From positions 2,903 through 66,902 of the forward strand of contig JBBAPZ010000017.1 of the NCBI GenBank assembly GCA_040400605.1: a stretch of DNA of 64,000 nucleotides, in the 5' to 3' direction. Origin of the DNA: Candidatus Sericytochromatia bacterium (GTDB taxonomy: Bacteria > Cyanobacteriota > Sericytochromatia > S15B-MN24 > JAQBPE01). Shown piece after piece: positions 6,774 to 58,875 of the stretch. The position numbers and the translations under genes are program-made. Every line of letters starts with the position of its first letter. The first letter of the stretch is position 1. The notes beneath the pieces were generated by a model. It searched no databases. It saw nothing but the letters and a program-made list of their open reading frames with translations, and was not told the DNA's origin.

Positions 6774-6860
6774 CGATACAGCGACGCATCGGTTTTCATT
6801 CAAAACCTGAGTGGCAAACTCAAAACATCAGGCACGGACTCGTTGTTTGTGACCTCACCA
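6774..6860 (+). mobile_element. MITE-like repeat family copy A (3' part degenerate)
   Basis: CGATACAGCGACGCATCGGTTTTCATTCAAAACCTGAGTGGCAAACTCAAAACATCAGGCAC... shares more than 80% identity with five other copies in the window. Confidence 0.6.
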
Positions 6861-6985
6861 CCCGAAGAGACCGGTGATTGCCCCTTGATTTGCGTTCCCC
6901 ACCGGTGAGCCTGGCAGATACTGGAACAATCGGCTTCGTGTTAGCATGGCGTTGGGCTTGAAGTTTTGAGGGTGGGGAGCAGACC

Positions 6986-7417
6986 GTGCAGAATTTTGCC
7001 AGTCAATGGGGTGCGATCGATCACGTGGGCATCGCGGTAAACGACCTTGCGAAGGCCCTGGAGTTCTATGTGAAGGTGTTAGGGCTTGATACGCCGACGA
7101 TTGAAGAAGTGGCGGATCAGAAGGTTAAAACAGCCATCTTTCCCACGAACGGTGGCCGTATCGAGTTACTCGAAACAACTGATCCAGACGGCCCAATTGC
7201 CAAATTCATTGCCAAACGCGGCGAAGGCATTCACCACGTTGCCTTGCGTGTCGACGATTTGGAGACCAAGTTAGCCGAACTCGCCAAGCAAGGGGTTCGT
7301 TTGATTGATACCAAACCACGCATCGGTGCAGGTGGCCATCTCATCGCATTCATTCACCCTGCCGCAACCGGCGGGGTCCTGCTTGAACTCTGCCAGCATC
7401 AAACGAGTCAAGCCTGA
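6986..7417 (+). CDS. methylmalonyl-CoA epimerase / VOC (glyoxalase) family protein
   Basis: IDHVGIAV...GEGIHHVAL motifs of the MCE/glyoxalase fold, ~140 aa. Confidence 0.7.
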   Translation: MQNFASQWGAIDHVGIAVNDLAKALEFYVKVLGLDTPTIEEVADQKVKTAIFPTNGGRIELLETTDPDGPIAKFIAKRGEGIHHVALRVDDLETKLAELAKQGVRLIDTKPRIGAGGHLIAFIHPAATGGVLLELCQHQTSQA

Positions 7418-7606
7418 TACACCACAGCCATTCGTGCCCTTGGGACGAACAATCAAACAAGCGGTCGATTTTGAGCGTACAACGCTTTTTCTGGCACCCT
7501 GTTTCCGCTTTGTGCTAGAATCCAACGTTTTGGGATTGCCTGATTGCGGTCAGTTTCCGAAGTGACGCTGGATATGGGTGTATTGTGAAATGGAGAACGG
7601 GTTTCG

Positions 7607-8746
7607 ATGAAGATTCACGAGTACCAGGGCAAACTGTTGATGGAAAAGTATCAGATTCCCACCACCAAGGGCAGCGTTGCGGACAATCCGGCGGATGCAA
7701 AGCGTATCGCGCAAGAAATCGGACGCAAAGTGGCCGTTAAGGCCCAGGTGCATGTCGGGGGTCGCGGGAAGGCGGGCGGCATCAAGATCGCCAACACGCC
7801 GGAAGAAGCTTACGAGGCGGCCAAAGCCATTCTTGGGATGAACATCAAGGGTTTGACGGTTAAAAAGGTGCTGGTCGAAGAAGCTGTGGATATTGCCACG
7901 GAGTATTATCTTGGCATGTTGGTGGATCGTGACAGCAAACGGGTCATCGTGATGGCCTCTGCGGAGGGTGGTGTCGAAATCGAGGAAGTCGCGGAGCGAT
8001 CGCCTGAGAAAATTGCAAAAGTATGGGTTGACCCCGCTGTCGGTCTCCAGGATTATCAAATTCGTCAACTGATTTTCGGGGCGGGTTTCGATCGCCGTTA
8101 TGTGAAAGAAGCAACGAGCTTCCTGCGTCATCTTTATGCGTGCATGATTGGCGCGGATGCAGACCTCGCAGAAATCAACCCGCTGGCCATCACGCAGGAT
8201 GGGCGAATGATTGCAGCGGATGCCAAGATCAACATCGACGAGAACAGCCTGTTCCGCCACCCGGATCTCGCAGGCTGGAAAGAGTCCGAAGATGGCCACG
8301 AAATCGAAGAAGAAGCGACCAGGCGGGGACTGACTTTCGTTCATCTCGGTGGCAACATCGGCATCATCGGAAATGGCGCCGGCCTCGTGATGACGAGTTT
8401 GGACGTGGTCAACCGTGAAGGCGGTAAACCTGCCAATTTCCTGGACATCGGTGGCGGCGCGAAAGCCGATGTGGTGAAGAATGCGTTGGAAATCGTGCTG
8501 ATGGAAGAAGGCCTCCAAGGCATCATGATCAATATTTTTGGTGGAATCACCCGCTGTGATGAGGTAGCCCGTGGCATCATCCATGCGACCGAAGGAATGG
8601 AGTTAAACATCCCTGTGGTCGTGCGTTTGTCAGGTACGGAAGAAGAAGCTGGCAGACGCATCCTGGAAGGCAGTGCCAAGTTCACCCCTGCCGCCAGCAT
8701 GCAGGAAGCGGCCCAAAAAGTGGTGTCACTGGCCGGCTTGAGATAA
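7607..8746 (+). CDS. sucC: succinate--CoA ligase [ADP-forming] beta subunit
   Basis: Canonical N-terminus MKIHEYQGK..., ATP-grasp fold, full length 379 aa. Confidence 0.95.
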   Translation: MKIHEYQGKLLMEKYQIPTTKGSVADNPADAKRIAQEIGRKVAVKAQVHVGGRGKAGGIKIANTPEEAYEAAKAILGMNIKGLTVKKVLVEEAVDIATEYYLGMLVDRDSKRVIVMASAEGGVEIEEVAERSPEKIAKVWVDPAVGLQDYQIRQLIFGAGFDRRYVKEATSFLRHLYACMIGADADLAEINPLAITQDGRMIAADAKINIDENSLFRHPDLAGWKESEDGHEIEEEATRRGLTFVHLGGNIGIIGNGAGLVMTSLDVVNREGGKPANFLDIGGGAKADVVKNALEIVLMEEGLQGIMINIFGGITRCDEVARGIIHATEGMELNIPVVVRLSGTEEEAGRRILEGSAKFTPAASMQEAAQKVVSLAGLR

Positions 8747-8796
8747 ACCGGTATTGGACCAAGAACCCATCACAATCACGCTGAGGAGCAAGTTTT

Positions 8797-9681
8797 ATGA
8801 GTATACTGGTCAACAAGCAGACCAAGCTGTTGGTGCAGGGCATCACGGGTCGTGAGGGTGCCTTTCACACGCAGAAGATGATCGAAGCCGGCACCCAGGT
8901 GGTAGCAGGCGTTACGCCGGGCAAGGGTGGCACACTTGACGCGAACGGGGTACCCATTTTCGATACGGTTGCGCAGGCGGTAGCCGCAACAGGCGCCAAT
9001 GCAAGCATTATTTTCGTGCCGCCGCCATTTGCGGCGGATGCGATGCTGGAATCGTTTGACGCGTTTGTGCCGTTGGTTGTGTGTATCACGGAAGGCATTC
9101 CTATTCATGACATGATCCGGGTCCACGATCGCCTGAAAACGAGTCAATCACGCTTGATTGGCCCCAACTGCCCTGGTTTGATCACCCCAGGCGAGGCCAA
9201 GCTTGGCATTATGCCCGCCCACATTTTCAAGCGCGGTAACGTCGGTATGATCAGCCGGTCCGGAACCCTTACTTATGAACTGGTTGCAGAGTTGTCGAGT
9301 CGAGGGCTCGGTATCTCGACGTGTGTGGGCATTGGTGGTGATCCCATCATCGGAACGCCGTTCATCGACTGCCTCAAACTTTTTGAGTCGGATCCCGAAA
9401 CAGAACTCGTGGTCATGGCCGGCGAAATCGGCGGGTCAGATGAAGAGACTGCCGCTGACTACATCAAATCGATGACCAAACCTGTTGTGGCCTTCATTTC
9501 CGGCCGAACAGCGCCGCCTGGCAAGCGCATGGGGCACGCGGGAGCGATCGTTTCAGGCAACAAGGGCACCGCTGAGGCAAAGGTCAAGGCACTGAGCGAA
9601 GCAGGCGTTCCTATTCCATTGAGAACGTATGAGGTGATCGACGAAGTCGAAAAACAGCTCAAACAGCTCGCCAAAGTGTAA
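8797..9681 (+). CDS. sucD: succinate--CoA ligase alpha subunit
   Basis: CoA-binding Rossmann N-terminus and the catalytic-His region (SRSGTLTYE). Directly downstream of sucC. Confidence 0.95.
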
Positions 9682-9901
9682 TTCCGCTTAAACGCATAAC
9701 TGGTTTCAGATGATGGGGTGCGCAAGAACAATCATGCGCACCCTTGCTGTATCTTGGGCAATAATGGACCTAAACAGTAAATTTTGATTATAATTTGATA
9801 AATTTACGCATAAATGATCAAGTGACTGTCGATAAGGTCTTTGGAAGAAGTAGCGCGTCAAGCGAAGCGATTGTGCCCCGAGCCCACGGAGAGACGTTTC
9901 A

Positions 9902-10414
9902 ATGAACAAGATGTTTGCCAGATATGCAGGGTGGTTGGGAACGGCATCCATGATTGTGCTTGCGGGTTGTGGTCGAGCGGCGACAGATGGGCAGGAGACC
10001 TTGATCTTGACGACGCTGGAGCGTCCGGCCTCAACCAAGACGGGTGTGATTGTCGACGGGCGTTGGTATCCCGCTGGCGAGGAGCCCATTGTGGAGGTAA
10101 CGCCACCGCCTGCAACCCCGCAAGCGGGTCGGGGGCACTTGCGGATGTTGGTTAATCTTAAAAAGTTGAGTGGGTTCGCCACGGCGATCACATTGAACGT
10201 ATCGACCAGCGAAAGCAAAGAATCGGTGATGACGATCAGATGGCAAGACGATCTGCGTCGTCGTGGCATCCAAACGGAATATACGGTCGAAAATCTCGCA
10301 CCAGGCGAATACGTGCTTGAGTTAAAAGAATTCAACGCCAGTGGCGGTTTCATTCGTTCTCACAAAAGCACCGGCAAGGTTGTTGCAGATTCCAGCCAAG
10401 AAACCCGTATCTAG
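9902..10414 (+). CDS. hypothetical lipoprotein
   Basis: Signal peptide with LAGC lipobox and no recognisable domain. A stem-loop follows at 10427-10470. Confidence 0.5.
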   Translation: MNKMFARYAGWLGTASMIVLAGCGRAATDGQETLILTTLERPASTKTGVIVDGRWYPAGEEPIVEVTPPPATPQAGRGHLRMLVNLKKLSGFATAITLNVSTSESKESVMTIRWQDDLRRRGIQTEYTVENLAPGEYVLELKEFNASGGFIRSHKSTGKVVADSSQETRI

Positions 10415-10771
10415 ACGAGTGAACCAAGGCTTGAGGCCAGCGTGCTGTCTGCCCGCTGGCCTCAAGTCTTGCTCCGTGCGCCAGGCATGATTTTGCCCAA
10501 GAATGATCGTGAGAGGATGTCGCGATGGTCTGCGGCATTGAATCAGACGCACTGTCGAATACCGATCATATATTTATGATGGTGATCACATCGATTATGT
10601 TATAATCCCGCTAAAGTGATTATGTTATGCCAACACACCCGTGATGGTCTGACAGATGCACGGATGGTGCGTCTGATAAAGGGGTTATCGATGATTTGGC
10701 TTGTCGTGACTCCCGGAGATCATCGCGTCCGGGCGCGCCTGAACCTGATTGATTGAGGGGGAATATCTCGG

Positions 10772-11452
10772 ATGGGAAACAGTCTTGTTTTTCTGCAACG
10801 CGTATCCATTTTCAGCGGCGTGGGCCAGGAGAGCCTTGAGCGCATTGCGAGCATTACACAGGAGAAAACCTATCCTAAAAAGAGCATCATTTTTCACGAG
10901 GGGGATCGTGGTGACACCTTGTACATTTTGAAGAGTGGGCGGGTCAAGATCTCAAAAATCACGGAAGATGGTCGTGAAAAGACTTTGGCGCTGATGCAAC
11001 CAGGTGAGTTCTTTGGTGAGATGGCTATTTTCGACGAGCAGCCGCGCTCCGCGACCGCGGAAGTGCTGGATGAGCAAGTGGTGGTTTATACGCTCAACAA
11101 ACGTGATTTCGAGCGATTGATCACGGGACATCCAACGATTGCATTAAAGATCATGCGTGATTTGACGCGTCGCATCCGACAGGTGAACCAGCAGGTTGAA
11201 GACCTCGCGTTCAAGGATGTGCACGAGCGCGTGGCGTCAACACTAAAAAACTTGGCGGAAGTGGAAGGGCGTCCGATTGGGTCAAAGGTTTTGATCAATT
11301 TGAAGATGACGCACCAGGATCTTGCGAACATGGTGGGTTCCTCGCGGGAAACGGTTACCCGAGCCTTGAATCGGCTACAGGATGAAGGAATCATTTCGAT
11401 TTCGCATCAGCAAATTACCATCAATCAGCCCAAGCAGTTGCAAATCTGGTAG
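10772..11452 (+). CDS. Crp/Fnr-family transcriptional regulator (cNMP-binding domain + C-terminal HTH)
   Basis: cNMP-binding beta-roll (GEFFGEMAIF...RSATA) and C-terminal HTH (QDLANMVGSSRETVTRAL). Confidence 0.8.
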   Translation: MGNSLVFLQRVSIFSGVGQESLERIASITQEKTYPKKSIIFHEGDRGDTLYILKSGRVKISKITEDGREKTLALMQPGEFFGEMAIFDEQPRSATAEVLDEQVVVYTLNKRDFERLITGHPTIALKIMRDLTRRIRQVNQQVEDLAFKDVHERVASTLKNLAEVEGRPIGSKVLINLKMTHQDLANMVGSSRETVTRALNRLQDEGIISISHQQITINQPKQLQIW

Positions 11453-11472
11453 TGCTGTGATCGACGGGCCCT

Positions 11473-11520
11473 CCTGCGCCAGTGACATGACGCAGGAGGG
11501 CTCAGGGTTTTGCACGGCAC
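11473..11520 (+). terminator. Rho-independent terminator downstream of the Crp-like gene
   Basis: GC-rich inverted repeat GCCCTCCTGCG...CGCAGGAGGGC followed by a GTTTTG run. Confidence 0.5.
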
Positions 11521-11561
11521 TTGGGTGACGTGGAACGGAACAGTTTTAAAAGGAGCCTGCC

Positions 11562-13411: not shown

Positions 13412-13458
13412 TTCAGCAGATGCCGGTTCTTGCGCCGGTATCGTGAGGGGAATTCGCC

Positions 13459-16190: not shown

Positions 16191-16549
16191 CAGGCTGCTG
16201 AAAAAGTGCCTGAAAGACTCTTTTCTTCCAAATTGCTCAGGGCGGAATGCGGGTTTACAGTCTCGACAAGGAGCCTGGAGCGCGTAATTCAGCAGCCTGT
16301 TAAGAGCTGTTTCCAGGTTTTCCAGATAATTGCTGCTTCACCAAGTCCGAAGGGTCGCCTGAAGTCAATGTGATCCATACAGGAAAGCGTTGATTGCTGA
16401 TCAAACTTTGGATGTTTTTGAACAGAAACCCATGCGTCACGGTATAACAGTTTTTGGTATCGAGCCCCGGACGGTCAAAACAACAACGGATTTACCACAC
16501 CGCCAAGACCATCAGGCCGCACAAGATAAAATGCCGCCCTCAAACGCTT

Positions 16550-18253: not shown

Positions 18254-19183
18254 GTGGATTTTCTCAAAAACAAGAATAACGAGGTTACTTTGTCCATTCA
18301 AACCCCTTTTAAGCCGCGCTCCATTGCCGAGTTATTGGGTCATTTTGGCTTGGTGGAGTTGCCGTTTCAATTGAGTGAGGATCCCCGTTGGCAGTTTCTG
18401 ACGCCACATTTGAAGTCTTGTCTGAGTCGCACACTGATGGGAATCGAGTCCCGTCAGGGCATGGTCAGTGTTGTGGGTGCTTATGGGTCTGGCAAGTCGA
18501 TGATGGTGCGACGTCTCGTCACCATTTTGGATGAGGATCCCGATTATGATGTGCAGGTGATTGCCAACCCCAGTTATACGGGTTTGCAGTTACTCAAGTT
18601 GATTGGGGATTTATACGGAGTCAGTCGCAAAGGCACGAAATTGGCGCAATTCGATGCGTTCGCCCGTTACTTGATGGAGGCTTATCAAAACAATCGTCAT
18701 CCGGTTTTGTTGATTGACGAAGCCCAGTTGCTCAGCGACGGTACGCGTGGCAATGGGGGCTTGCCTGTATTGAAGCAGATTAATAATTTTTCGGCACTTG
18801 ATGAGAAGTCAATTTCGATTGTGCTCGTGGGGCAAGAGACGTTGCGTCACAATTTGGCACGCCATCCTGAAATTGAAAGTCGTATTTTTACCAGCTCCAC
18901 GCTGGATCCATTGAACCGCGAGGAGGTAACGGACCTGGTTGAATTCCGTTTGCGGGTGGCAGGATGGGGTGGTGCACCGCTGTTTGCGCCGGAAGCGCTT
19001 GAGGCGTTGTATGTGGGCTCGCGCGGGGTCCCGCGTCGCGTGTGCACACTGGCATTCAACATGATGCAGGCAGCCTTTGCCGAGGGAGCGTTTTTCATAT
19101 CCGGTGCGCGCGCGCAGGAGGTGGTCGCCCGTGAAGCGAGCAATCGTGGTTTGAATCTCGAACCTGCCGTGATGGAGGAATAG
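18254..19183 (+). CDS. ExeA/GspA/MshM-like AAA ATPase (AAA_22/TniB-like)
   Basis: GTG start. ExeA-type N-terminus (FGLVELPFQLSEDPRWQFLTPHLKSCLSRTL), Walker A GAYGSGKS, Walker B LLIDEAQ. Confidence 0.7.
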   Translation: MDFLKNKNNEVTLSIQTPFKPRSIAELLGHFGLVELPFQLSEDPRWQFLTPHLKSCLSRTLMGIESRQGMVSVVGAYGSGKSMMVRRLVTILDEDPDYDVQVIANPSYTGLQLLKLIGDLYGVSRKGTKLAQFDAFARYLMEAYQNNRHPVLLIDEAQLLSDGTRGNGGLPVLKQINNFSALDEKSISIVLVGQETLRHNLARHPEIESRIFTSSTLDPLNREEVTDLVEFRLRVAGWGGAPLFAPEALEALYVGSRGVPRRVCTLAFNMMQAAFAEGAFFISGARAQEVVAREASNRGLNLEPAVMEE

Positions 19184-19189
19184 GCTGCC

Positions 19190-20218
19190 ATGACCACGTC
19201 GTCACTTAAAAAGTTCGATGAGCTGGCCATGAGTCGGAGGCAGCAGCGTGGCACGCCGTTGCCTCAGATTCCCCTCGCACAGATTGCACCGTTGCCCAAT
19301 CAGCCCAGACAGGCGATCGACCCCGACAAACTGAATGAACTGGCGACAAGCATCCGGATGCATGGCGTGATTCAACCCATCATTGTGATGGTCAGACAAA
19401 ACGTCACGGATTCCGATCCTATCCGTTACAGCATTGTTTGTGGCGAGCGTCGTTTTCGCGCAGCCCGGTTGGCCGGCCTCGATGCGATTCCGGCAGTCGT
19501 CCGTGACTACGCGGATGACGAAGTGGCCGTTTTAGCGCTACTTGAAAATTTACAAAGGGAGGATCTCACACCACTTGAAGAAGCGGAATACCTGGCGCAA
19601 TTGAAACAAAAGTATGCATTTACGGAGGAACAACTGGGCGAACGCCTGGGCAAGAGTCGTGATTACATCCATATGCGCACCCGTCTTCTCAATCTGAGTC
19701 CAGACCTCATTGAGACGTGGAAATCCGCTTCGACACCCCGCGTATTCGAAAAACTGACCCCCTCCCACGCCATTCTGCTCAACCAGGTGAAAGATGATGA
19801 TCTCCGTCAAACACTGATTCAACTCATCGTTGATGAACCAATCACCGTGGCGGAAACCCGCCGCCGTATCGACATGATCAAACAAGCCACCGAAAGTGAC
19901 GACGTAAACACCACAGAAACGGGTCAACGATTGTTGCAATCAGCGGTGAAGGGTATCAGTGACGCCGAGTTCCGGCTACGGTTACAGCAAGTTGCACCAA
20001 AACCGGCCCAATGCCTGGAGCCTGTCAGGGGGCCGGAGCCCACCTTGGTTCTTCAAGATCTGGCCATGCACCGTCTGCTCGCACCCTTGATCGCGCAAGG
20101 GGCGACATCCGTGGCCTTTCAGGAACTCGAACTTGCGCTCAAAAAAGATCTGACCTGGGTACGTCGCATTCATCGCGACAATCTGGCTGGCGGCCAAACG
20201 GGGACCAATGACGCTTGA
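19190..20218 (+). CDS. ParB/Srx-fold (ParB N-terminal nuclease-like) domain protein
   Basis: ParB-box motifs GERRFRAA and ENLQREDL. Long helical C-terminal extension. Lies 7 bp downstream of the AAA gene. Confidence 0.7.
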   Translation: MTTSSLKKFDELAMSRRQQRGTPLPQIPLAQIAPLPNQPRQAIDPDKLNELATSIRMHGVIQPIIVMVRQNVTDSDPIRYSIVCGERRFRAARLAGLDAIPAVVRDYADDEVAVLALLENLQREDLTPLEEAEYLAQLKQKYAFTEEQLGERLGKSRDYIHMRTRLLNLSPDLIETWKSASTPRVFEKLTPSHAILLNQVKDDDLRQTLIQLIVDEPITVAETRRRIDMIKQATESDDVNTTETGQRLLQSAVKGISDAEFRLRLQQVAPKPAQCLEPVRGPEPTLVLQDLAMHRLLAPLIAQGATSVAFQELELALKKDLTWVRRIHRDNLAGGQTGTNDA

Positions 20219-20272: not shown

Positions 20273-21490
20273 ATGGCCACGTTAAACGTGTCTTATCCTG
20301 CTACTCAGGCGGACTGGGAAAAATTGATGGCGTTTGCCAAGCTTGTCCGTCCGCAGGATTCCGAGGGTCATTTTTTACATCAATTTCGTGAACGCCCGGA
20401 TCTCTCCGCGACTGACCACGCATTGTTGCTCGAAGATGACCAAATCATCGCAACGACTTCAATGGTGCCCCATCGGCACTATTTTGGCGATGGGGAACTC
20501 GAAGTCGGTGAATTGACCATGATGGCCACACACCCTGAGCGACGCCTGGAAGGACACGCCCGTCGTTTATATGAGCATTGGCTGGATGAAGCCCAGTCGC
20601 GCAATTATGCATATCTGTACATGTATGGCCCTGCGCGGGTGTATGAGACCATGGGTTTCGTGGCTTCTGCACCTGCCCATCACTTCCCGGTCATGCAAAT
20701 GAGCCGCGAGGTGCTCACCTCGGTCATGTCACCCTATCGGGTGCGCCCCTTGATCAAATCAGATTGTTCGATGCTGGAGGAGTTGTATGACCTCGCCAAT
20801 TGTCGAACGCCGATGGCAGAAGTTCGGTCACCCGCCTACTGGACCTATCGGTTGTCACAGACTCATCGTGACGGCTTTGGCTGGTGGGTGGTCGTGGATG
20901 AAAACAATATCCCACAAGGTTATGCGTGGGCGGATCTCCCCCACGCACGCCTGCGCGAAGTCATAGCCGGCAACGAAGAAGCCGCACGCGCCATCCTGCA
21001 ATGGATGCGCTGGGAATTGATGGAGCGCAAGTTACCCCATTTCACAGCCCAAGTGCCACTAAACCAACGTTTTGCCCAGTATGCAATCAAGGCAGGGGCA
21101 ATGGTCGCAAACCCCCACCATCACTACCCCGGAAACGGGTACGCCACCGTTAAACTACTGCGCCTGCAACCCCTGCTGCAAGCCCTCAAGACCGATTTTG
21201 AAAAACACCTCTGTGAGTCACACTATGCCGACAAAGGCTTTGATTTCACCTTTTTGATGGGCGATGAAGCAGTCAGTTTGCGCTGGTGGCGCCAACAACT
21301 TCGTATCGCACCCGGTTCGGTTGGACACGAGATTCGCCTGAACGAGACACAATGGGCACCTTTGCTCACCGGCTACCGTTCGATCAACGATTGCGAAAAC
21401 CTTGAGTTGACACCCGCGGAACGCCCCTTGATGAAAGTTCTTTTCCCAGGTGGCTACCCCCATATCTGGGATCTTGAGCACATCGATTGA
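20273..21490 (+). CDS. GNAT N-acetyltransferase, Eis-like (GNAT + SCP2-like C-terminal domain)
   Basis: GNAT motif A region followed by a C-terminal sterol-carrier-like domain. ~405 aa, typical of Eis-family enzymes. Confidence 0.65.
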   Translation: MATLNVSYPATQADWEKLMAFAKLVRPQDSEGHFLHQFRERPDLSATDHALLLEDDQIIATTSMVPHRHYFGDGELEVGELTMMATHPERRLEGHARRLYEHWLDEAQSRNYAYLYMYGPARVYETMGFVASAPAHHFPVMQMSREVLTSVMSPYRVRPLIKSDCSMLEELYDLANCRTPMAEVRSPAYWTYRLSQTHRDGFGWWVVVDENNIPQGYAWADLPHARLREVIAGNEEAARAILQWMRWELMERKLPHFTAQVPLNQRFAQYAIKAGAMVANPHHHYPGNGYATVKLLRLQPLLQALKTDFEKHLCESHYADKGFDFTFLMGDEAVSLRWWRQQLRIAPGSVGHEIRLNETQWAPLLTGYRSINDCENLELTPAERPLMKVLFPGGYPHIWDLEHID

Positions 21491-25792: not shown

Positions 25793-25921
25793 CGCCACTC
25801 TCCCGTCACCCACCATCAATAAACTGTTCATTGCGCAGCATGGGTGTTATAGGCGTTACGCAAACCAAAGTTGACTCAATCAAGACCAAGTATAGTTTAA
25901 ATCTTGGTAAAGATCATCCGT

Positions 25922-26015
25922 CAAGGCAGAGATTTCGCCCCGGTTGTGCTCAGCAACTTATGAACCTGCCGGAAGGCGTAACTGCTTGCAGTGGTTAAGC
26001 CTGTGACAGCAGCCA
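25922..26015 (+). ncRNA. conserved ~95-nt intergenic element, copy 1 (unknown function; candidate structured RNA or protein-binding site)
   Basis: AAGGCAGAGATTTCGCCCCGGTTG...CAGCAACTTATGAACCTGCCGGAAGGCGTAACTGCTTGCAGTGGTT is ~85% identical to 61497-61590. Potential helices are GGCAG/CTGCC and ACTGC/GCAGT. Confidence 0.35.
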
Positions 26016-28087: not shown

Positions 28088-28462
28088 TCAAAACAAGCGT
28101 AAAAAAAACCGTTTCTGTTATTCAGTCACAACGCCATCATCGAACAAACATCAAACGTCATCGTCGTTCCATCGTTGATTTCACTTGCGACATTCAACAA
28201 ACATTTAAAAATACAAAATGTACAGACAATAAACGCTAAACCGATAATTGACGGTTTGCCTGACAAAATCGTGGAAGTTTGGTGACGGCCTTGAACACCA
28301 GACAGCAACACTGTGGTTGGTGATCTCACGTTTGATTGAAGCGAAACATCAACGTGGCTTCTGGCATCGACGCACGGAAGCTGAAAAAATTGTGGCACGG
28401 AAGCGATGTGCCGCGGCATCACACGAATTCGCGCACAAAATGCATCCTCGGACTCGCAGCAC

Positions 28463-28590
28463 GAATGATGCGGAAACGCGGTTCTTGGTGATCAAATTTT
28501 AGCAATTGTTCATTAACAAGGCGTGAGTGCCTGATACTTTTGAGTTTGCCACACAAATTTTGAACAGAAACCAAGGTGTCACTGTATAGC
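28463..28590 (-). mobile_element. MITE-like repeat family copy B (inverted orientation)
   Basis: Reverse complement reads CTATACAGTGACACCTTGGTTTCTGTTCAAAATTTGTGTGGCAAACTCAAAAGTATCAGGCACTCACGCC...GATCACCAAGAACCGCGTTTCCGCATC. Confidence 0.6.
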
Positions 28591-28684: not shown

Positions 28685-29527
28685 ATGTCAGATGCGATTT
28701 GGCGCCCATTGAATCAAATCGATCCCCACTTTGTCAAAGCGGCGTTAGCCGCCAATCCCGTGCGCGCGTGCGCACTGCTCGACGCCCTGCGGATTGGGGA
28801 AGCAATGGGCTTTTTGCATCTGTTGGACATGGAGGTGCTGACCGTCCAGGATGAAATCAAGGCGGTGGTTTGGTATGACAACTGGCTGAAACCGTGGGTT
28901 GCAGGCACCAACTGGATCCCGGATTTGGCCAAACATGCGGCGGATCGCTTCGCGCCGATACAACAGATTCATGGTCCCGCTGACACGGTGGAGGGGTTGG
29001 CGCTTGCGTGGTCACTGGGCGCACCGCACCAACAACAACGCTTTTTGATTTACGAAATGAACAGCGACTACCTGAATGCCCATGTCGATGCCGAAGGATG
29101 CCGTCCGGCGCGCACTGACGAACTGCTGACCATCGCCAAACAAGAAGCCGTGATGATTTTTGAAGAAACCGGTATCAACCCCATGGATTCAGATGCTCAT
29201 CCCCATCTGATGCGGGTGGCTCGCGGGATCGATGAGCAACGCTACCACGTACTGGAAGTCGATGGCGTGATCCGCTTCCAGTTGGCTCTGGACTCGTTTG
29301 GTGATAATTGGGGCGAACTGGCCTACGGATTCACACCAACAGCATTCAGAAAGCAGGGGTATGCAGCCAGAGGGCTTGGCGGTATCAGCAAACAACTGCT
29401 GCAACGGTTGCCCATCCTGTTTGGCAGGGTGCGACCCGAAAACCTGGCAGCCAGAGCGATGCACGGACGTGTCAACTCACACCTCAGAAACTGGGAATAC
29501 TTAGAGGCCAGCTGGCGCCCAATATGA
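28685..29527 (+). CDS. hypothetical protein, possible GNAT-like C-terminal domain
   Basis: The C-terminal FRKQGYAARGLGGISKQLL resembles GNAT motif A. Weak. Confidence 0.4.
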   Translation: MSDAIWRPLNQIDPHFVKAALAANPVRACALLDALRIGEAMGFLHLLDMEVLTVQDEIKAVVWYDNWLKPWVAGTNWIPDLAKHAADRFAPIQQIHGPADTVEGLALAWSLGAPHQQQRFLIYEMNSDYLNAHVDAEGCRPARTDELLTIAKQEAVMIFEETGINPMDSDAHPHLMRVARGIDEQRYHVLEVDGVIRFQLALDSFGDNWGELAYGFTPTAFRKQGYAARGLGGISKQLLQRLPILFGRVRPENLAARAMHGRVNSHLRNWEYLEASWRPI

Positions 29528-29602
29528 CGCGTCTGCGACACGTCATCGAGCCAAATCGTGCCGCTGCGTATAGATCGTTGCCTGTTCGACACTTCAACCA
29601 AT

Positions 29603-29728
29603 CGATTACACCGTGACGAATGGGTTTTTGTTCAAACATTGTGTAGCAAACTTAAAACATCAGGCGCTGACTCGCTGTTGTCGACCATCCGCAAAGATTT
29701 AATCGCCAATCAACGCGTTTCTGTATCG
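29603..29728 (+). mobile_element. MITE-like repeat family copy C
   Basis: CGATTACACCGTGACGAATGGGTTTTTGTTCAAACATTGTGTAGCAAACTTAAAACATCAGGCGCTGACTCGCTGTTG...CCAATCAACGCGTTTCTGTATCG. Confidence 0.65.
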
Positions 29729-34807: not shown

Positions 34808-36274
34808 TCATCCTCCCATTGCAATCGTACGAACAGCGGTTTTCGCCACTTCACGCGTCTGATCCAGCAATCCAGGTTGCCGCGAAACCCAATCCAAATA
34901 CGGCAACGCTTCCCGTGAGCGCATTTCTGTCAGTAACTGAATGGCCGCGTTCATCGTCGAACACTCCGCCCCTGTTCGCAGGTAGGTCAACAAGGCCCGC
35001 GTCACTTCATTACGCGCCGCAGAGGGTTGAGCCGGGTTGGGTGCGAGGGCTTGTCGCATCTCGGCCACAGCCGCGATGCCATCTGGACCACCCTTGCGTA
35101 ACTCAAGCTCCATGGTTCGCAAATATTCAATCGATGCCCGACCATTGGAAACCACGCCAGACACTCCCGACGTGGCTGTCTGCTGTTGTGCCATCACTTT
35201 CATGGCATTGAGCGCGACATCGCGGGTTGCATCCAATAAACCCGGCTTCCGTGCGACCGCTGCGATATAAGGCGCGGAACGCGGATCATTCATCGCAACC
35301 AAAGCATTGACCGCCTCACCCACACTCACATCTTCCTTATGATAAATGTGATTCACCAACAAACGAAACACGTTCTCACGCGATTCCGGATTGGTCTGAG
35401 CAATCTGCGCCATCTGCCTGATGGCCATCGCACCCTTTTGCCCACCAGCATTCAGATCATCACGCAACACCTGCAAAACGATCGCCGAATCCTCAGGACG
35501 CATCCCCATACCAGGCATCACCTGCGCAGTCGGCTGGGCCGCAAAGGTACCGGGCTGCATCACTTGCGTCGGTTGAGTCGCGAACGTGCCTGGCTGCATG
35601 ACCTGTGTCGGCTGAGCCGCAAACGTGCCAGGCTGCATCACCTGCGTCGGCTGAGTCGCAAAGGTACCGGGCTGCATCACCTGCGTCGGCTGAGTCGCAA
35701 AGGTACCGGGCTGCATCACCTGCGTCGGCTGAGTCGCAAAGGTACCGGGCTGCATCACTTGCGTCGGTTGAGTCGCAAAGGTACCGGGCTGCATCACTTG
35801 CGTCGGTTGAGTCGCAAACGTGCCAGGCTGCATCACCTGAGGGGAGCCAAAACCCTGGTTCTGTGACGCGCCCGCCCCTTGACCCAGTGTGTGAATGCCG
35901 GAAGCTGTCGGACTTGCTTGCAATGCATTGAGATACCGCGTTGCAAAGGCAACCACTTGCGGATCCTGTCCGGGAACATTGGCAACTTGTTGCAGACGCA
36001 TCATGCCCGCAGTGGGATCAACCTGGGCGAGACGAGCAGCGGCCAGCAAACCTGCATAGCGATCTTGAGGGTTGGATGAGGCAAGCAACTGGTCAGCCTG
36101 CGCGGCCATCACCGCAGCATTTCCAGCTCCAGCGGAGCCTCCCGTCAATCTCATCTGATCCTGGACCATGGCAGGCGCACTCGGAGGCATGCTCTGCACG
36201 GCCGCCAGCATAGGAGAAAAGACAGGCTGTACGCTCCCAAGGGGTGCGATCGATAAGTGATTGCCTGACATCAC
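34808..36274 (-). CDS. HEAT-repeat protein with internal 13-aa tandem repeats
   Basis: About 9 copies of QVMQPGTFATQPT, then PBS-lyase/HEAT-like repeats (PYIAAVARKPGLLDATRDVALNAM; PYLDWVSRQPGLLDQTREVAKTAV). Paralogous to 36718-38154. Confidence 0.6.
   Translation of the reverse strand: MMSGNHLSIAPLGSVQPVFSPMLAAVQSMPPSAPAMVQDQMRLTGGSAGAGNAAVMAAQADQLLASSNPQDRYAGLLAAARLAQVDPTAGMMRLQQVANVPGQDPQVVAFATRYLNALQASPTASGIHTLGQGAGASQNQGFGSPQVMQPGTFATQPTQVMQPGTFATQPTQVMQPGTFATQPTQVMQPGTFATQPTQVMQPGTFATQPTQVMQPGTFAAQPTQVMQPGTFATQPTQVMQPGTFAAQPTAQVMPGMGMRPEDSAIVLQVLRDDLNAGGQKGAMAIRQMAQIAQTNPESRENVFRLLVNHIYHKEDVSVGEAVNALVAMNDPRSAPYIAAVARKPGLLDATRDVALNAMKVMAQQQTATSGVSGVVSNGRASIEYLRTMELELRKGGPDGIAAVAEMRQALAPNPAQPSAARNEVTRALLTYLRTGAECSTMNAAIQLLTEMRSREALPYLDWVSRQPGLLDQTREVAKTAVRTIAMGG
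35490..35850. repeat. ~9 tandem copies of a 39-bp repeat (CTGCATCACCTGCGTCGGCTGAGTCGCAAAGGTACCGGG)
   Basis: Near-perfect tandem copies are visible directly in the sequence. They lie in frame inside CDS 34808-36274. Confidence 0.85.
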
Positions 36275-50968: not shown

Positions 50969-51070
50969 CGATACAGCAACGCATCGCTTTTTGTTCAAAA
51001 CATCAGGCACTGACGGGTTGTTACTGTATCACAGCCAAAATTTGATTACCAATCAACGCGTTCGAATAAT
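50969..51070 (+). mobile_element. MITE-like repeat family copy E (internal ~25-bp deletion, degenerate 3' end)
   Basis: CGATACAGCAACGCATCGCTTTTTGTTCAAAACATCAGGCACTGACGGGTTGTTACTGTATCACAGCCAAAATTTGATTACCAATCAACGCGTTCG. Confidence 0.6.
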
Positions 51071-52430: not shown

Positions 52431-52528
52431 TGCGCGCGCGAGGTTTAACACCCAAGATTTCGTTCACCCGTCTCCGGTTTCCTGCTTGCGAAATAAATTA
52501 TATTCTGTTAAAATTGCCTCTACGGTTT

Positions 52529-52601: not shown

Positions 52602-52605
52602 CCTG

Positions 52606-52645
52606 AAATGAAGCCGGTTTCCAGTTTTGGAAGCTGGCTTCTTTT
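52606..52645 (+). terminator. Rho-independent terminator after tRNA-Phe
   Basis: Hairpin AAGCCGGTTTCCAG...TTGGAAGCTGGCTT followed by CTTTTTTGTTTGG. Confidence 0.7.
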
Positions 52646-53014
52646 TTGTTTGGTTTACCACTGTGGGTACCAGATTAACGAAGATCATTTAAGTGACGTG
52701 TGCAGGATAAGTGACACTTTGAACTAAACTACTCCTGACTCAACTCGTGCCGAAAAGTGAACACCCGGCCTCACAGAGAATGCCGGGTGTCGTGAGGCGA
52801 GCTTACGATGATCAAGGTTGAGGATGGATAAAAGCCTGGTAGCTCCTGGACCCCGAAGCTCCGGGGGGACGCCCTGCCAGTTCAAGTCGAGCAGCGTGTC
52901 AGGCATGCCTGGAACCACGCCGTGGTGAACCGCCCCCCGCGAAGGCGCCCATGCTGTCGTGGAAAATGTCAGGGCCGCCACTGATCCCCTATAGCCTCGC
53001 CCACCACACCAATT

Positions 53015-54298: not shown

Positions 54299-54500
54299 GG
54301 CAATATCCTCGTTGCAGGATTCACGTCATCTCTTACAACATACCCGGGTGAAGAATGTTTATTCAACCACTCAAAGATGAATTGGTTGATGGTTAAATTT
54401 ACCCGAGAGCCAAACAGAAAGCTCTACAATCAGGATTTATAACCATTTTAAAAAATTTCGCTACACATCAGACGATTTTGACGCATTTAAAATTTCAAAG

Positions 54501-54572
54501 TGGGCGGTACGTGATTCGAACACGTGACCCCTTCGGTGTGAACGAAGTGCTCTACCACTGAGCCAACCGCCC
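54501..54572 (-). tRNA. tRNA-Val (anticodon CAC)
   Basis: Reverse complement folds as acceptor GGGCGGT/ACCGCCC, D-arm GCTCAGTGGTAGAGC, anticodon stem CTTCG/CGAAG with loop TTCACAC, T-arm ACGTG-TTCGAAT-CACGT, discriminator A. Confidence 0.9.
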
Positions 54573-54621
54573 GGGAATTTTAGTATAACAGGCAGTATCG
54601 CAAACTTGTCAAGAAAAAGGC

Positions 54622-56010
54622 CTACTTACCCACCTCGATAATCAAACCCTGATAATTGGCACCACCAAACAAAGGCAAATTGGCCAAACTCGGGGACTGC
54701 CACATTGCGAAGAACTGATCCTCATCAAGCTGCTGATAAGGGCCGTCAATGGAGTCATGAAAAATGATCTTGCCACTCAGGTTGTTATAACCCACCACCG
54801 TCACATAGTGCTGCTGAAAGAGATCCTGGTTGAATTCAAGCAACACGATCGGCGGCTTGCCTTGATCGATTAACGATTTGAGAAAACCAAGATTGCCCCC
54901 TCGATACGCCTTGGCCTTTAAACCCTTACTGCCAATGTAACCAACGATATTATTGTGATGAGTCGCCAAATTGAGACGATTCTGCTCCATCACCAACGCC
55001 TGATAATCCTGCTTGACACCCCAATAATTAAGCACGACCGTCGTCACCGCCTGCGCACACGTATTGTCGTTAGCCTGCTTGAAAAACGGCACATCCTTGA
55101 TCACCCGGCTGCCATCCGCGAAACTCATCAACTGTCGCCCACCCGGCAAACTGGCCACCTTGTAAGTAGCCTTTGTGGGATCATAAACACGCCCAACCCC
55201 CGCGCGGGGATTCACCGCCTGATAACTGCTGTTCTTTAAAAAATCCGGCGTATGTGGAACTGTCGGCGCCCCACAACCAGTCAAGAACATCGCACCCATC
55301 ATCGCCATCAAACCCGCCGCCACCATTTTGGACTGAATTTTCAAAGCGTTGCGAATGTCCCACTTGCTGACCATGCCGGCATCTTGCAAAACCTGGCCTA
55401 ACTGACGCCGCGTCAACTTCTGCTCTTCAAGCGCCGCAACCAGTTGCCGTCGGTTCAACCGCTTGGTCGCCACCAGAATCTCACCCAGCAACAAACGCAC
55501 CGCCAGGGGGTCCGAACTCTTGAAATCATCCTGCCAAGCCAATACTGCAGACAGTTCCGATGGATCAAGCAAATTCAACCGCAACAGCACCTCGCCCAAT
55601 TTTTCATTGGTGCGCTTCTGCTCCTCCACCGCCAAACTCAACTGCCGCGGACTCAAACGTTTCGATTTTTTCAGAATATCCCCAAGCCGTTGCTGGACAT
55701 TGTCCGCCTCACCGGTAACGGTGTTACCGGTTTGCTGAGCCAGAATAAAATCCAGCTCCATCGCGCTCAAGTGCCCCAAACGCAACAGAATCGCACCCAG
55801 TTTTTCATTCGTGCGCCGCTTTTCAGCTAACGCTTTCTCCAGATCCGAAGGACTCACCCACTGCTGGGAAATCAAAATCTCCCCCATCAGCTGACTGGTT
55901 GGATTGTGATGCTCAAATAACAGACTCACCGCAACAGCCCCCCGATTGAATCTTGCGAACGCCCCAAGTACAATCCCACCAAATATTGATGATCGCCTCG
56001 CAACAGCCAA
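54622..56010 (-). CDS. three MshEN (T2SS-E N-terminal, c-di-GMP-binding type) domains + TM + C-terminal papain-like (C39-like) peptidase-like domain
   Basis: Six copies of the ~24-aa MshEN motif (e.g. KLGAILLRLGHLSAMELDFILAQQ; KLGEVLLRLNLLDPSELSAVLAWQ). Hydrophobic segment MVAAGLMAMMGAMFLTGC. The C-terminal domain has a Cys (NDNTCAQAV) and a downstream His. The true start may be the internal Met at 55887. Confidence 0.6.
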   Translation of the reverse strand: MAVARRSSIFGGIVLGAFARFNRGAVAVSLLFEHHNPTSQLMGEILISQQWVSPSDLEKALAEKRRTNEKLGAILLRLGHLSAMELDFILAQQTGNTVTGEADNVQQRLGDILKKSKRLSPRQLSLAVEEQKRTNEKLGEVLLRLNLLDPSELSAVLAWQDDFKSSDPLAVRLLLGEILVATKRLNRRQLVAALEEQKLTRRQLGQVLQDAGMVSKWDIRNALKIQSKMVAAGLMAMMGAMFLTGCGAPTVPHTPDFLKNSSYQAVNPRAGVGRVYDPTKATYKVASLPGGRQLMSFADGSRVIKDVPFFKQANDNTCAQAVTTVVLNYWGVKQDYQALVMEQNRLNLATHHNNIVGYIGSKGLKAKAYRGGNLGFLKSLIDQGKPPIVLLEFNQDLFQQHYVTVVGYNNLSGKIIFHDSIDGPYQQLDEDQFFAMWQSPSLANLPLFGGANYQGLIIEVGK

Positions 56011-56017
56011 GCCACGA

Positions 56018-57013
56018 TCACATCACATCCTGCGGCACACACACCGTCACGCCCTGACGCCCATCCACTGTCTTCATACCCCAAGCCCAAGCCATTTTGC
56101 CGTTTTGCGCGCGAAAAATTACAGGCGATCGCCCGCCACCACCCAAAAAGCCAGGCTCCACAGCCACCTCTAAACGTCTATCCTCACCAAAACGCCGAAT
56201 GCGTATCCGATCCTCACTGCCCGTTCTTTCGACAAAACTCAGCAGGCCCTCTGACTCTGACCAAGACACCACAGGCTCCCGCAAACGATTGTTCGATTCC
56301 AGCCAGCGTTCCTCCGGCAACCACTGCCCCTTGGCCCCCATCTCACGCCGGTACAACACACCCGCCCGATGATACACCGCAAGCAAGCCAGTCTCACCCA
56401 CTTCGCCCAAGCTTGGCTCAAACCCAGCCTCGGCAACCTGTGTCACGGCTCCAAACGTCTCACCATCCCCGGAAGATGCAACCACCAACCCCTCACCCAT
56501 GATTTCCGCAAGCAGCCAAAATCGACCGGCGTGACGCGTTAACGCTAAATCCTGGATACCGCCAAAGCCAGCAACCATGCGCGCCCCGTCCCACCACGTC
56601 GCCCCTTTGGGCCACTTGGCATGATACAACTCGAACTGATCCCCGTCACGATTGGAAGCCAGATACAGATGCAATGTTCCAGATGTATCCTCAAGAAAAA
56701 CAGGCGCTTGATCACTTAACCCAGACTGCCCAATCCGCCGCGGCTCCGTCCAGTGACGACCATCTTGTGACACGGCTGAAAATAACTGCCGCGAACCTGA
56801 ACGTGTCCCGACAAACACCACCACCCAACTGCCATCTTGCCTCTGCAACAAAGCAGGCTGCGCACCACCAATACCGCCGACACCGAACGCAACTTGCGCA
56901 TACCCCGCCTGAGTGACCGCCTGAACCGAACCAACCACCGCGGGCAAAGCCCCACACCCGCTCAATACGCCCATTATCAAAAGAGCGACAAACAAAACCC
57001 TCATCCGTCGCAA
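56018..57013 (-). CDS. BNR/sialidase-like beta-propeller lipoprotein
   Basis: LSGCG lipobox. Repeated SxDxGxxW-type motifs (SQDGRHWTEP; SSGDGETFG). Confidence 0.55.
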   Translation of the reverse strand: MRRMRVLFVALLIMGVLSGCGALPAVVGSVQAVTQAGYAQVAFGVGGIGGAQPALLQRQDGSWVVVFVGTRSGSRQLFSAVSQDGRHWTEPRRIGQSGLSDQAPVFLEDTSGTLHLYLASNRDGDQFELYHAKWPKGATWWDGARMVAGFGGIQDLALTRHAGRFWLLAEIMGEGLVVASSGDGETFGAVTQVAEAGFEPSLGEVGETGLLAVYHRAGVLYRREMGAKGQWLPEERWLESNNRLREPVVSWSESEGLLSFVERTGSEDRIRIRRFGEDRRLEVAVEPGFLGGGGRSPVIFRAQNGKMAWAWGMKTVDGRQGVTVCVPQDVM

Positions 57014-57501
57014 CCCCCAACTCGCTGAAATGGACTCCAGGCTCCCCGCACGTTCGCCTGCAAGTCCTCACGACTGTACGCACTGCCAAAAAAGCAATCA
57101 AATACTTCCTTAAACCATCCCAACCCAACAACCAAAGCCACCGCCACACGTTCTTCCAAACGACCGGGCAAAAACGACAAACGACCACCCAGCCAAGCAC
57201 TCAGATAGCCACTCAGAAAAAAATGCTTGGCCTTGTCGCTTCCCGATGGCAAATCCACCAAATAATAAGGATGCTCACTCGCAGCCACGGCCGCAGCCAA
57301 ATAGGCCCGCTCCCGGTTACGTCCGACATCCCCAAAACCAAAAGCCTGACAACTCAATCGCAAGGACTCCCTCACCAGATCAACGGAGCGCAGGCCAGAT
57401 ACTTCACGCGAGGACGCCAATGCATCAACCACCGACCGATAACGTTCATCACGACCCACCACCCGCAAACGCGCCTCAATTCGGTCGTTGATGGCACTCA
57501 C
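57001..57501 (-). CDS. hypothetical protein
   Basis: 166-aa ORF that overlaps the downstream gene start by 13 bp. Confidence 0.4.
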   Translation of the reverse strand: MSAINDRIEARLRVVGRDERYRSVVDALASSREVSGLRSVDLVRESLRLSCQAFGFGDVGRNRERAYLAAAVAASEHPYYLVDLPSGSDKAKHFFLSGYLSAWLGGRLSFLPGRLEERVAVALVVGLGWFKEVFDCFFGSAYSREDLQANVRGAWSPFQRVGGCDG

Positions 57502-57602
57502 GCAAAATCCCTCTCAAATCCGTCGTACCAAGGCTTATCAATGATCCAAACCAACGACTTGCGTCAGCGGGTGTTATCATTATATTAAAATTTGGAGGAA
57601 GC

Positions 57603-58607
57603 ATGCCCAAAGTGCGAGAGATGGGCGAATGGCGTTTGATCGCAGCCTTGCAAACGCGACTGGAATCCCCCGCATCCGACCGCCTTGGTATCGGGGATGA
57701 TACCGCCATCACACATTTACCAGAGGACGTGCAGGTTTTGACCACTGTGGATGCACTGGTTGAAGGTATTCATTTCCGATGCACAACCACTTCACCCGAA
57801 GCATTGGGCTGGAAAGCCCTGATGGTCAGTCTCAGTGACATCGCTGCAATGGGAGGCACCCCTGCCTGGGCAGTCATCAGTCTAGCCGTGCCACCTGAAA
57901 CCGAGGAAGAATGGGTCCTGAAACTCTACGACGGCTTGCGCGACGCCGCGATGGCAGGCGCGTGCCCCTTGGTGGGCGGTGATACCACCGGCTCACGCGG
58001 CACGATCATGCTCAGTCTCACAGTGGTAGGCTACACAAAAAATCCCCTCTACCGCCACACGGTTGTGGCCGGCGATATACTCTTTACAACCGGACCCATG
58101 GGACGCTCGGCTGCGGGACTGTGGTGTCTTGAAAATCCAGACAAAGCCTCGAAATTACCCCTTTCCATTCGCCAACTGGCAATTTCTGCCCATACCCTGC
58201 CACACGCACAACTCCCAGCCGGCAAAGCCTTGGGTGCGTTACCCTTTCGTGTGAGTTTGATGGACAACAGCGACGGGCTTGGCGTGAGCGTGCGGTTGTT
58301 GGCCGAATCATCCAAGACAGGGATGATGCTCACGCTTGATGATTCCAACCTCGACCCGGTCACACAGGCGGTGGCCACGCTGGCCGGTCAATGTCCGTGG
58401 AAGTGGGTGCTCGAAGGCGGCGAGGATTATCATCTCGTGGGCGCTACCGCGCCAGCGCACTGGGATGAATTGTGCCACGCTTTGGCTCAGCAAGGCGTGA
58501 TTGCTCACGTCATCGGACACGCCACCGAACAAATGACACTCACCGTGAGCTTGAACCAACAACCACCACAACCCCTCAGCCAGACACACGGCTACCGGCA
58601 CTTTTAA
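57603..58607 (+). CDS. thiL: thiamine-monophosphate kinase
   Basis: AIR-synthase-related fold with ThiL N-terminal motifs (GIGDDTA...VEGIHF) and the ~330 aa length. Confidence 0.85.
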   Translation: MPKVREMGEWRLIAALQTRLESPASDRLGIGDDTAITHLPEDVQVLTTVDALVEGIHFRCTTTSPEALGWKALMVSLSDIAAMGGTPAWAVISLAVPPETEEEWVLKLYDGLRDAAMAGACPLVGGDTTGSRGTIMLSLTVVGYTKNPLYRHTVVAGDILFTTGPMGRSAAGLWCLENPDKASKLPLSIRQLAISAHTLPHAQLPAGKALGALPFRVSLMDNSDGLGVSVRLLAESSKTGMMLTLDDSNLDPVTQAVATLAGQCPWKWVLEGGEDYHLVGATAPAHWDELCHALAQQGVIAHVIGHATEQMTLTVSLNQQPPQPLSQTHGYRHF

Positions 58608-58735
58608 GAAGACCTTGGCTCAAGGTCCATCACAATCAAAACCAGCCCCAACACTCAGTTGCAGGTGTGAGTAAGTGATGCCGAGATACCAAGGAAACGC
58701 GTGAGTCGCCCTCCGAGCAATATCCCCAGGCAAAC

Positions 58736-58875
58736 ACGATATGCCATACGGTGACGCATCGGTTTCCGTTCAAAACTTGTTTAGCAAACTGCAAAATATC
58801 ACGCACTCACGCGCTGTTTATCAAAAAAGTCAAAAATTGATCACCAATCAACGCGTTTCTGTATAAAACTATCGT
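58736..58875 (+). mobile_element. MITE-like repeat family copy F
   Basis: CACGATATGCCATACGGTGACGCATCGGTTTCCGTTCAAAACTTGTTTAGCAAACTGCAAAATATCACGCACTCACGCGCTGTTTATC...GATCACCAATCAACGCGTTTCTGTATAAAACTATCG. Confidence 0.65.

Follow-up and report, generated by a model that had tools for sequence, protein, structure and literature searches.

A 64-kb stretch of contig JBBAPZ010000017.1 (assembly GCA_040400605.1, Candidatus Sericytochromatia bacterium), hereafter the window, carries a family of small intergenic repeats of about 123 bp that are most probably the decaying relics of a lineage-specific family of miniature transposable elements with inverted repeats (MITEs). A previous sequence-only reading of this DNA had already described the repeats as MITE-like, and the description holds: they are small, non-coding and AT-rich, with imperfect inverted repeats at their ends and a consensus that folds into a hairpin; they are found on many unlinked contigs, and they cluster with a sister element that has TA at its flanks and sits nested in one of them. 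As we reconstruct its history, a non-coding, AT-rich fold-back unit of ~123 bp with imperfect terminal inverted repeats (TIRs) would have spread through the chromosome of this lineage using a transposase borrowed from elsewhere in the genome. The borrowed enzyme would most likely have been of the IS630/Tc1-mariner type, i.e., one that targets TA within YTAR sequences (here, for example, CTAG) and leaves the TA duplicated, an attribution that is tentative and to which we give slightly less than an even chance. The copies would have persisted where insertion was harmless, mainly right after stop codons and between convergent genes, and would later have decayed by substitution and deletion, with no selection on their sequence or structure.

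The six copies originally reported in the window were used to build a profile that, searched against the whole 64 kb, recovered all of them at the expected places (E = 5e-41 to 1.7e-27), aligned over ~125 bp. Six sites in the window matched a degenerate pattern of 24 nt taken from the 5' portion of the repeat (GTGACNNNTNGGTTTYNGTTCAAA), versus none in 100 dinucleotide shuffles. Hence, the family is real and far beyond chance. Although the six copies exist, a seventh one (copy G) had been missed, and the window contains in total seven recognizable copies plus one or two fragments, all of them intergenic (Table 1). This amounts to 7 copies per 64 kb, or one per ~9 kb, the previous estimate being about one per 10 kb. 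Other details had to be corrected. The identity among copies, put at 80 to 90%, is lower, as the four full-length window copies share only 71 to 78% in pairwise comparisons. The internal loss in copy E is real, but it comprises 20 to 21 bp rather than ~25 bp, and no insertion in the 3' TIR of copy F needs to be invoked, since this copy ends in CTGTATAA, as the majority does.

Full-length copies (n = 15) measure 122 to 125 bp and align with few gaps. Their GC content is ca. 41% (median, ~42%) versus 53.6% for the window, with values of 34 to 47% in 14 of the 15 and 56% in one decayed copy. Pairwise identity among copies ranges from 49 to 90% (mean, 68%), and each copy is 62 to 90% identical to the 15-copy consensus, TTATACAGTGACGCATCGGTTTTTGTTCAAAACTTGTGTAGCAAACTCAAAACATCAGGCACTCACTCGCTGTTTTTGAACAACAGCCAAAATTTGATCACCAATCAACGCGTTTCTGTATAG. 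The repeat is delimited by imperfect TIRs, TATACAGTGACGC...GCGTTTCTGTATA, with (T)TATACAG...CTGTATA(G) as the majority terminal consensus in the 15 copies; across them, 78% of the cells in the TIRs TATACAG.GACGC / GCGT..CTGTATA are paired. Read directly off the consensus, an imperfect inverted-repeat similarity extends to ~31 bp (22/33 positions). The ends are thus inverted repeats, as had been claimed, but the 8-bp pair given for them (CGATACAG/CTGTATCG) is a minority variant of this longer and imperfect repeat.

The consensus forms a long hairpin in which the ends pair with each other and GGTT.TTGTTCAAAA pairs with TTTTTGAACAA.CAGCC. Its predicted folding energy is -30.8 kcal/mol versus -19.2 +/- 3.0 for shuffled sequences (z = -3.9), and the two least diverged copies also fold better than their shuffles (z = -3.8 and -2.5), whereas the window copies do not (z from -1.7 to +2.3). 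RNAalifold returned zero consensus pairs for the 15 copies. When compensatory changes were counted on the consensus hairpin, where 74% of the cells are paired, there were 3 double changes versus 7.4 in shuffles, and covariation among the 15 copies is at or under shuffle level. Taken together, the folds of the window copies, the RNAalifold result and the double-change counts indicate that the hairpin belongs to the ancestral element and is eroding by mutation, without selective upkeep.

The repeats are not restricted to the window. We scanned metagenomes with the same 24-nt pattern, checked the matches with the profile, and found further full-length copies on contigs L018, L021, L022, L026, L029, L032, L034 and L039 from two Joint Genome Institute metagenomes, two contigs of which overlap the window at 99 to 99.5% identity. 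About 12 copies lie outside the window, on at least eight unlinked contigs of the same population, giving a total of 19 placed copies. The unlinked regions that bear them have a GC content of 54 to 58%, and the copies there are neighbored by housekeeping genes that bear no relation to one another (FTHFS, hemC, selO, an aminoacyl-tRNA synthetase, lipoamide dehydrogenase and amylase, among others). Leaving aside the copy that brought in each locus, there are about four full and two partial extra copies in 87 kb, i.e., approximately one per 15 to 20 kb. This is close to the density in the window and suggests, by extrapolation, hundreds of copies per genome. Three assemblies (L001, L025 and L026) stop inside a copy, as expected for a dispersed repeat; the family disrupts the metagenome assembly of its host.

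All 19 placed copies, whose flanking open reading frames (ORFs) were checked against Pfam, are intergenic: nine between convergent genes, seven between co-directional genes, and three between divergent genes or at a contig end. In Streptococcus pneumoniae, the parasitic small repeats RUP, BOX and SPRITE, as well as insertion sequences (ISs), are enriched between convergent genes (PMC3049150), and the repeats described here follow the same pattern. Sixteen of the 19 copies follow a co-oriented gene, at -21 to ~140 nt from its stop codon. This had been noticed for five of the six original copies (A, C, D, E and F, with B in a divergent setting), and the newly found copy G fits as well. Copies in co-directional settings are usually nearer the upstream stop (5 to 142 nt) than the next start. 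The orientation follows the neighboring gene and not one strand of the window, where five copies are on the plus strand and two on the minus strand.

Evidence of past mobility was found in copies that interrupt or adjoin one another. In contig L022, a copy of the repeat described so far (family 1) is interrupted by a 110-bp element of a second family (10849-10958; ends, TACAGATTC...GAATCTGTA), which forms a near-perfect hairpin (z = -5) and has the same TACAG...CTGTA ends as family 1. The other copy of this second family, 6.7 kb away on the same contig (4155-4263), has TA on both sides; no copies of it were detected in the window. The junctions of the nested element read CTTGTC-TA-[110 bp]-TA-GCAAC, and intact family 1 copies, ungapped at this point, read CTTGTnTAGCAAAC; the insertion thus took place into CTAG, with a net gain of the element plus two bases (TA). 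The same internal site, CTTGTC/TA/GCAA, is found in the window, where the fragment A0 is cut exactly at the start of copy A (junction, CTTGTC-GA-TACAG). In L026, two copies lie side by side. The flanks of family 1 have a pyrimidine at position -2 in 15/15 cases and a purine at position +2 in 13/14, TA is the most frequent flank, and the base next to TACAG/CTGTA is nearly always A/T, a pattern that matches a YTAR target. Insertion at TA in a YTAR context with duplication of the TA is the signature of IS630/Tc1-mariner transposases, and the nested sister element with TA on both sides points to mobilization of this type. For ISY100, a cyanobacterial member of the IS630 family, duplication of the TA target was found in vitro, and an imperfect TIR of 24 bp is all that is needed in cis (PMC2170065).

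Several observations weigh against this reconstruction. Target-site duplication, for which a check had been proposed, has weak support in family 1: the nested sister element does add a TA, but just 2 of ~13 family 1 copies are bounded by TA on each side. In the putative TA, the outer base is T/A at only 15/29 ends, a share below that predicted from the neutral decay of TA, and the adjacent A...T is nearly invariant. Products bearing TA at one end and a lone A at the other are known from ISY100 too, though far less often (3/39 in vitro [PMC2170065]). We found no direct repeats of 2 to 9 bp further out in the flanks of family 1, and the nested case is equally compatible with a unit A-TACAG...CTGTA-T placed between T and A with no duplication. 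There are no differences in presence or absence among strains, copies B, C, D, E, F and G being all present at 96 to 99.9% identity, and no clean empty site appeared among contigs within that range. The proposed search for a cognate transposase with matching TIRs was equally unproductive: Pfam scans of 43 ORFs, 33 from the window, showed no transposase domain, nor did the precomputed annotations of related contigs, and neither the window nor ~200 kb of related sequence contained an autonomous element whose ends match; a single pair of TACAG/CTGTA ends bounding a long stretch was at chance level. Finally, the orientation of the element equals that of the genes in 7/7 co-directional contexts (two-sided P of ~0.016), a bias that a symmetric element mobilized by a DDE transposase does not predict. 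Neither a promoter nor a convincing terminator that would account for it was detected. It may derive from selection against one orientation, or from chance, and it is the main unexplained point, along with the odd flank pattern.

The orientation bias also bears on a different view of the family, namely, that former MITEs were domesticated as an orientation-dependent element of the 3' untranslated region or intergenic spacer (a transcript-end stabilizer, an attenuator, or a processing or protein-binding site), retained for its action on the transcript of the upstream gene. The seven co-oriented copies in co-directional contexts, the 16 of 19 that come after a co-oriented gene at a short distance from its stop, the tightly conserved length (122 to 125 bp), and, in copies D and F, a weak hairpin with T-rich motifs close to the 5' end would agree with it. 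However, there is no consensus structure, covariation is below that of shuffles, the folds of the window copies are no better than those of shuffles, copies A, E and G are truncated, and three copies have divergent neighbors or adjoin a contig end. Orthologous copies change at a higher rate than the rest of the intergenic DNA, copy E is undergoing deletion (see below), and Rfam finds nothing. We consider such a role improbable. Several of these results, together with scans for promoters and terminators that gave nothing consistent (only weak, non-conserved terminator-like hairpins of 5 bp), also speak against the earlier suggestion that the copies act as terminators or as a source of small RNAs; a conserved RNA or terminator role is not supported. 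Similarly improbable is the wider alternative of either an orientation-selected element, always co-directional with the preceding gene, or an unrecognized duplication-free mechanism that carries the A...T pair, with no identifiable transposase, as in Correia elements. Were it true, this would be the first described small mobile repeat of Sericytochromatia-like relatives, with unusual end chemistry or a transcript-level role.

Somewhat less probable still is mobilization without target duplication in its specific form, in which A-TACAG...CTGTA-T was inserted within Y-N/N-R by a non-IS630 enzyme, for example, a single-strand one (IS200/IS605-like or REP/RAYT-like) or a site-specific recombinase. 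The nearly invariant A...T, next to outer bases that are T/A at only 15/29 ends and never A/T swapped, would be natural for such a unit, as would the lack of any other direct repeat in the flanks, and orientation bias is typical of strand-specific elements. Nevertheless, the long TIRs are unlike the subterminal hairpins or asymmetric ends of IS200/IS605 derivatives, the length is ~4 times that of a REP unit, and orientation in the window follows the neighboring gene and not the strand. Both clean insertions of the sister family, nested and solo, have TA on both sides, and ISY100 too gives TA/A products (PMC2170065).

Two further explanations carry almost no weight. One of them is a local segmental duplication, which had been put forward as the finding that would count against a mobile element, or else conserved promoter or regulatory boxes of related genes; seven copies within one 64-kb window and one gene flanked by copies B and C might suggest it, but the flanks share no similarity, the neighboring genes are functionally unrelated, and copies are present on at least eight other, unlinked contigs, which excludes local duplication, whereas the nine copies between convergent genes, where no promoter is expected, rule out a promoter box. 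The other is integron attC sites (gene-cassette recombination sites), which are imperfect palindromes of ~60 to 140 bp located just after the cassette ORFs in the same orientation; the ~123 bp of the repeats resemble the size of the Vibrio VCRs. Size, imperfect palindromy and post-stop position in the orientation of the gene are thus shared, but adjacent copies are 1.0 to 21.8 kb apart between core genes (serS, sucC, thiL, fliD) with no cassette array, the TATACAG/CTGTATA ends do not fit the RYYYAAC...GTTRRRY core sites, both orientations occur, and there is no integrase among the Pfam-scanned ORFs. An identity with REP/BIME sequences was also discarded, as the unit is ~123 bp long with TIRs, versus a palindrome of 20 to 40 bp, and no RAYT-like (Y1 transposase) domain was present among the scanned ORFs.

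The decay of these probable MITE relics could be followed among close relatives. Copies B, C, D, E, F and G are present in strain contigs 99 to 99.9% identical to the window, and a lineage 96% identical has orthologous copies of D and E. Between the two lineages, substitutions amount to 3.4% in coding and 3.9% in other intergenic DNA; for the elements, whose counts are small, the values are 5.6% in copy D and 14% in copy E, which has a further 18-column deletion in the 96% relative. The copies evolve, therefore, at least as fast as other intergenic DNA. In the window, the deletion of copy E lies between two CAAAAC direct repeats. The divergence rates, the truncation of A, E and G and the distance of the copies from the consensus (10 to 38%) indicate an old burst followed by neutral decay, and the family looks inactive now.

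Outside this lineage we found no trace of the family. The repeats had no Rfam match at gathering thresholds or at E <= 5, blastn of the consensus against 72,556 PLSDB plasmids gave no match, and two patterns gave 0 hits in viral contigs. Scanning GTDB representatives, a set that did not include the host species, with GTGACNNNTNGGTTTYNGTTCAAA produced 15 single hits (Mycobacterium, Acinetobacter, Bacillaceae and others), in which only the pattern region matched and which we judged to be chance or coding matches. A metagenomic match on contig L037 was discarded too, as it falls in a coding region ending just upstream of an aldehyde-oxidoreductase-like gene. Neither family was detected (E <= 10) in 54 kb of the nearest sequenced relatives (69 to 73% SerRS identity), and on this basis family 1 is lineage specific. 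A literature search for MITEs in Sericytochromatia retrieved nothing relevant.

Table 1. Repeat copies and fragments located in the 64-kb window
Feature	Position	Strand	Extent	Genomic context
A0 fragment	6740..6774	+	5' 35 nt of a copy (TACAGCCACGCGCAGGTGCCTGTTCAAAACTTGTC); profile E = 0.074	
Copy A	6775..6868	+	5' three quarters (model positions 2-92); 3' end lost or diverged	48 nt past the stop codon of a panE-like gene, upstream of a same-strand glyoxalase-fold gene
Copy G	16376..16445	-	Both ends kept, ~50 bp of the interior deleted; profile ~16372-16454, E = 1.6e-9	Between a glyoxalase-like gene and fliD, both -; also in strain contig L045
Doubtful fragment	28300-28356		Profile E = 0.04	
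Copy B	28467..28588	-	Full length	Intergenic, between divergent genes
Copy C	29607..29727	+	Full length	Between convergent genes
Copy D	42554..42674	+	Full length	Fills a convergent gap
Copy E	50970..51070	+	20-21-bp internal deletion; 3' end decayed	Flanked by ZIP transporter and DUF3604 genes, both +
Copy F	58745..58865	+	Full length	137 nt past the stop codon of a thiL-like gene

The window itself is ordinary chromosome, with panE, sucC, serS, fliD, a ParB-like gene, thiL, groEL, ribosomal protein genes and two tRNAs. For its LytR-family protein (45 to 57% identity) and its seryl-tRNA synthetase, SerRS (60 to 73%), the top named homologues are found in Candidatus Sericytochromatia and in metagenome-assembled genomes of unclassified Cyanobacteria. 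Judging from these similarities, the host is probably an uncultured bacterium from the non-photosynthetic lineages that are sister to cyanobacteria. Several metagenome assemblies contain near-identical contigs (96 to 99.9%). The local gene order (crp-like, serS, a T2SSE ATPase, fliD, and AAA_22/ParB) is kept in contigs L047 to L049 (GCA_036675505.1 and GCA_036703175.1), the nearest relatives, which have a GC content of 65 to 72% versus 53.6% in the window, i.e., there has been a large compositional shift in the lineage of the window. In this region (18254-20218), an AAA_22/TniB-like ATPase gene adjoins a ParB_N/HTH_ParB gene, a pair conserved in the distant relative L047.

Some of the copies are located in peculiar surroundings. 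The two ORFs beside copy D (41844-42563, +, and the lytR-like 42657-43643, -) have their last codons and stop codons within the repeat, which supplies stop codons to two convergent genes. The similarity of the LytR_cpsA_psr protein encoded by the lytR-like ORF to its Sericytochromatia homologues ends at position 42687, at the edge of copy D; the homologues run ~100 amino acids further and include a LytR_C domain (PF13399), which is missing here. The same arrangement is found in the 96% identical lineage. The truncation of this lytR-family gene may be associated with the insertion of copy D. The possibility that the gene was split across copy D was rejected, as the ORF beyond it has no LytR_C domain and tblastn found no remnant. 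Copies B (-) and C (+), inverted and with their 5' ends inward, bracket a single ORF of 280 amino acids (28685-29527) with no Pfam hit, in what resembles a composite-like arrangement. Close to copy F, 16 nt upstream of its 5' end, there is a strain-level indel: in the 99.5% identical strain contig L025, 1,216 bp (7446-8661) replace 13 nt of the window (58717-58729) and contain a pentapeptide-repeat-like ORF (7610-8563).

Other repeated sequences were detected in the window. A motif of ~26 to 48 nt, GACACGTCATCRAAYCAGATTGTGC, occurs at 29514-29561, 59431-59478 and 20741-20770; one of these sites lies shortly before copy C, and another follows copy F at a distance of about 560 nt. A pair of ~100-nt sequences on the plus strand (25913-26015 and 61484-61586; 78% identical), GTYAAGGCAGAGATTTCGC...CTGCCGGAA..CGTAACTGC.TGCAGTG, is predicted to fold modestly and did not match Rfam at E <= 5; its second copy precedes a PilZ-domain ORF by 58 nt. 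The pair could represent a further repeat family or an uncharacterized RNA. A 37-nt stretch ending in ...TTCTTAAGTGATCACRCATG, 78% shared between 5617-5653 and 60698-60734, either precedes the panE-like and CYTH-domain genes or coincides with their start, and may be a common leader or start region. Lastly, a 39-nt tandem repeat of ~8 to 11 units (13-amino-acid repeats) is found at 35470-35898, within an ORF of 488 amino acids (34808-36274, -) with no Pfam hit, and alignments to the related strains L040 and L041 suggest that the number of repeats differs.

The significance of the family is mostly practical, and it opens no new mechanism. Absent from the GTDB representatives, plasmids, viral contigs and 54 kb of nearest relatives that were searched, it provides a lineage-specific marker. 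Its abundance in a lineage of 54% GC with relatives of 65 to 72% hints at a past transposon burst in a little-known branch next to cyanobacteria.

Among known small repeats, REPs are palindromes of 20 to 40 bp mobilized by RAYT, and ERICs, which fold into stable RNA hairpins, show conservation at orthologous positions. Both the ERIC/IRU and the REP/BIME repeats of enterobacteria are intergenic and often co-transcribed with the upstream gene, with orientation effects (PMC3049150). In contrast, the structure of the repeats described here is not maintained, and the copies decay. Correia elements, restricted to Neisseria, begin with TATAG..., are flanked by TA, and have context-dependent effects on transcripts, with documented promoter, RNase III and IHF functions; they are not known to have a transposase. 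These elements (NEMIS/CREE) are units of 100 to 155 bp with TIRs of ~26 bp (PMC3049150). There is no sequence homology to them in our family, and functions of the promoter, RNase III or IHF type are not evident here.

Closer in terms of host is Nezha, a cyanobacterial MITE proposed to be mobilized by ISNpu3-like elements (as cited in PMC3049150). Nezha, the ISNpu3-like elements and ISY100 share with our family a host within the Cyanobacteriota and a link, here only proposed, to the IS630 family. The host here is probably Sericytochromatia-like and non-photosynthetic, and the TA duplication of family 1 is not cleanly seen. Finally, the RUP element of S. pneumoniae inserts at TA. It is a non-coding, high-copy fold-back of ~107 bp with TIRs, thought to be mobilized in trans by an IS630-family transposase and significantly enriched between convergent genes (PMC3049150). 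RUP has no sequence similarity to our family and a host from another phylum, and it has a candidate partner IS (IS630-Spn1), whereas none was found here, where the copies are much more diverged (mean pairwise identity of 68%) and have mostly lost the hairpin. What both have in common is that they are small, non-coding, high-copy fold-backs with TIRs, a proposed mobilization in trans and an enrichment between convergent genes.

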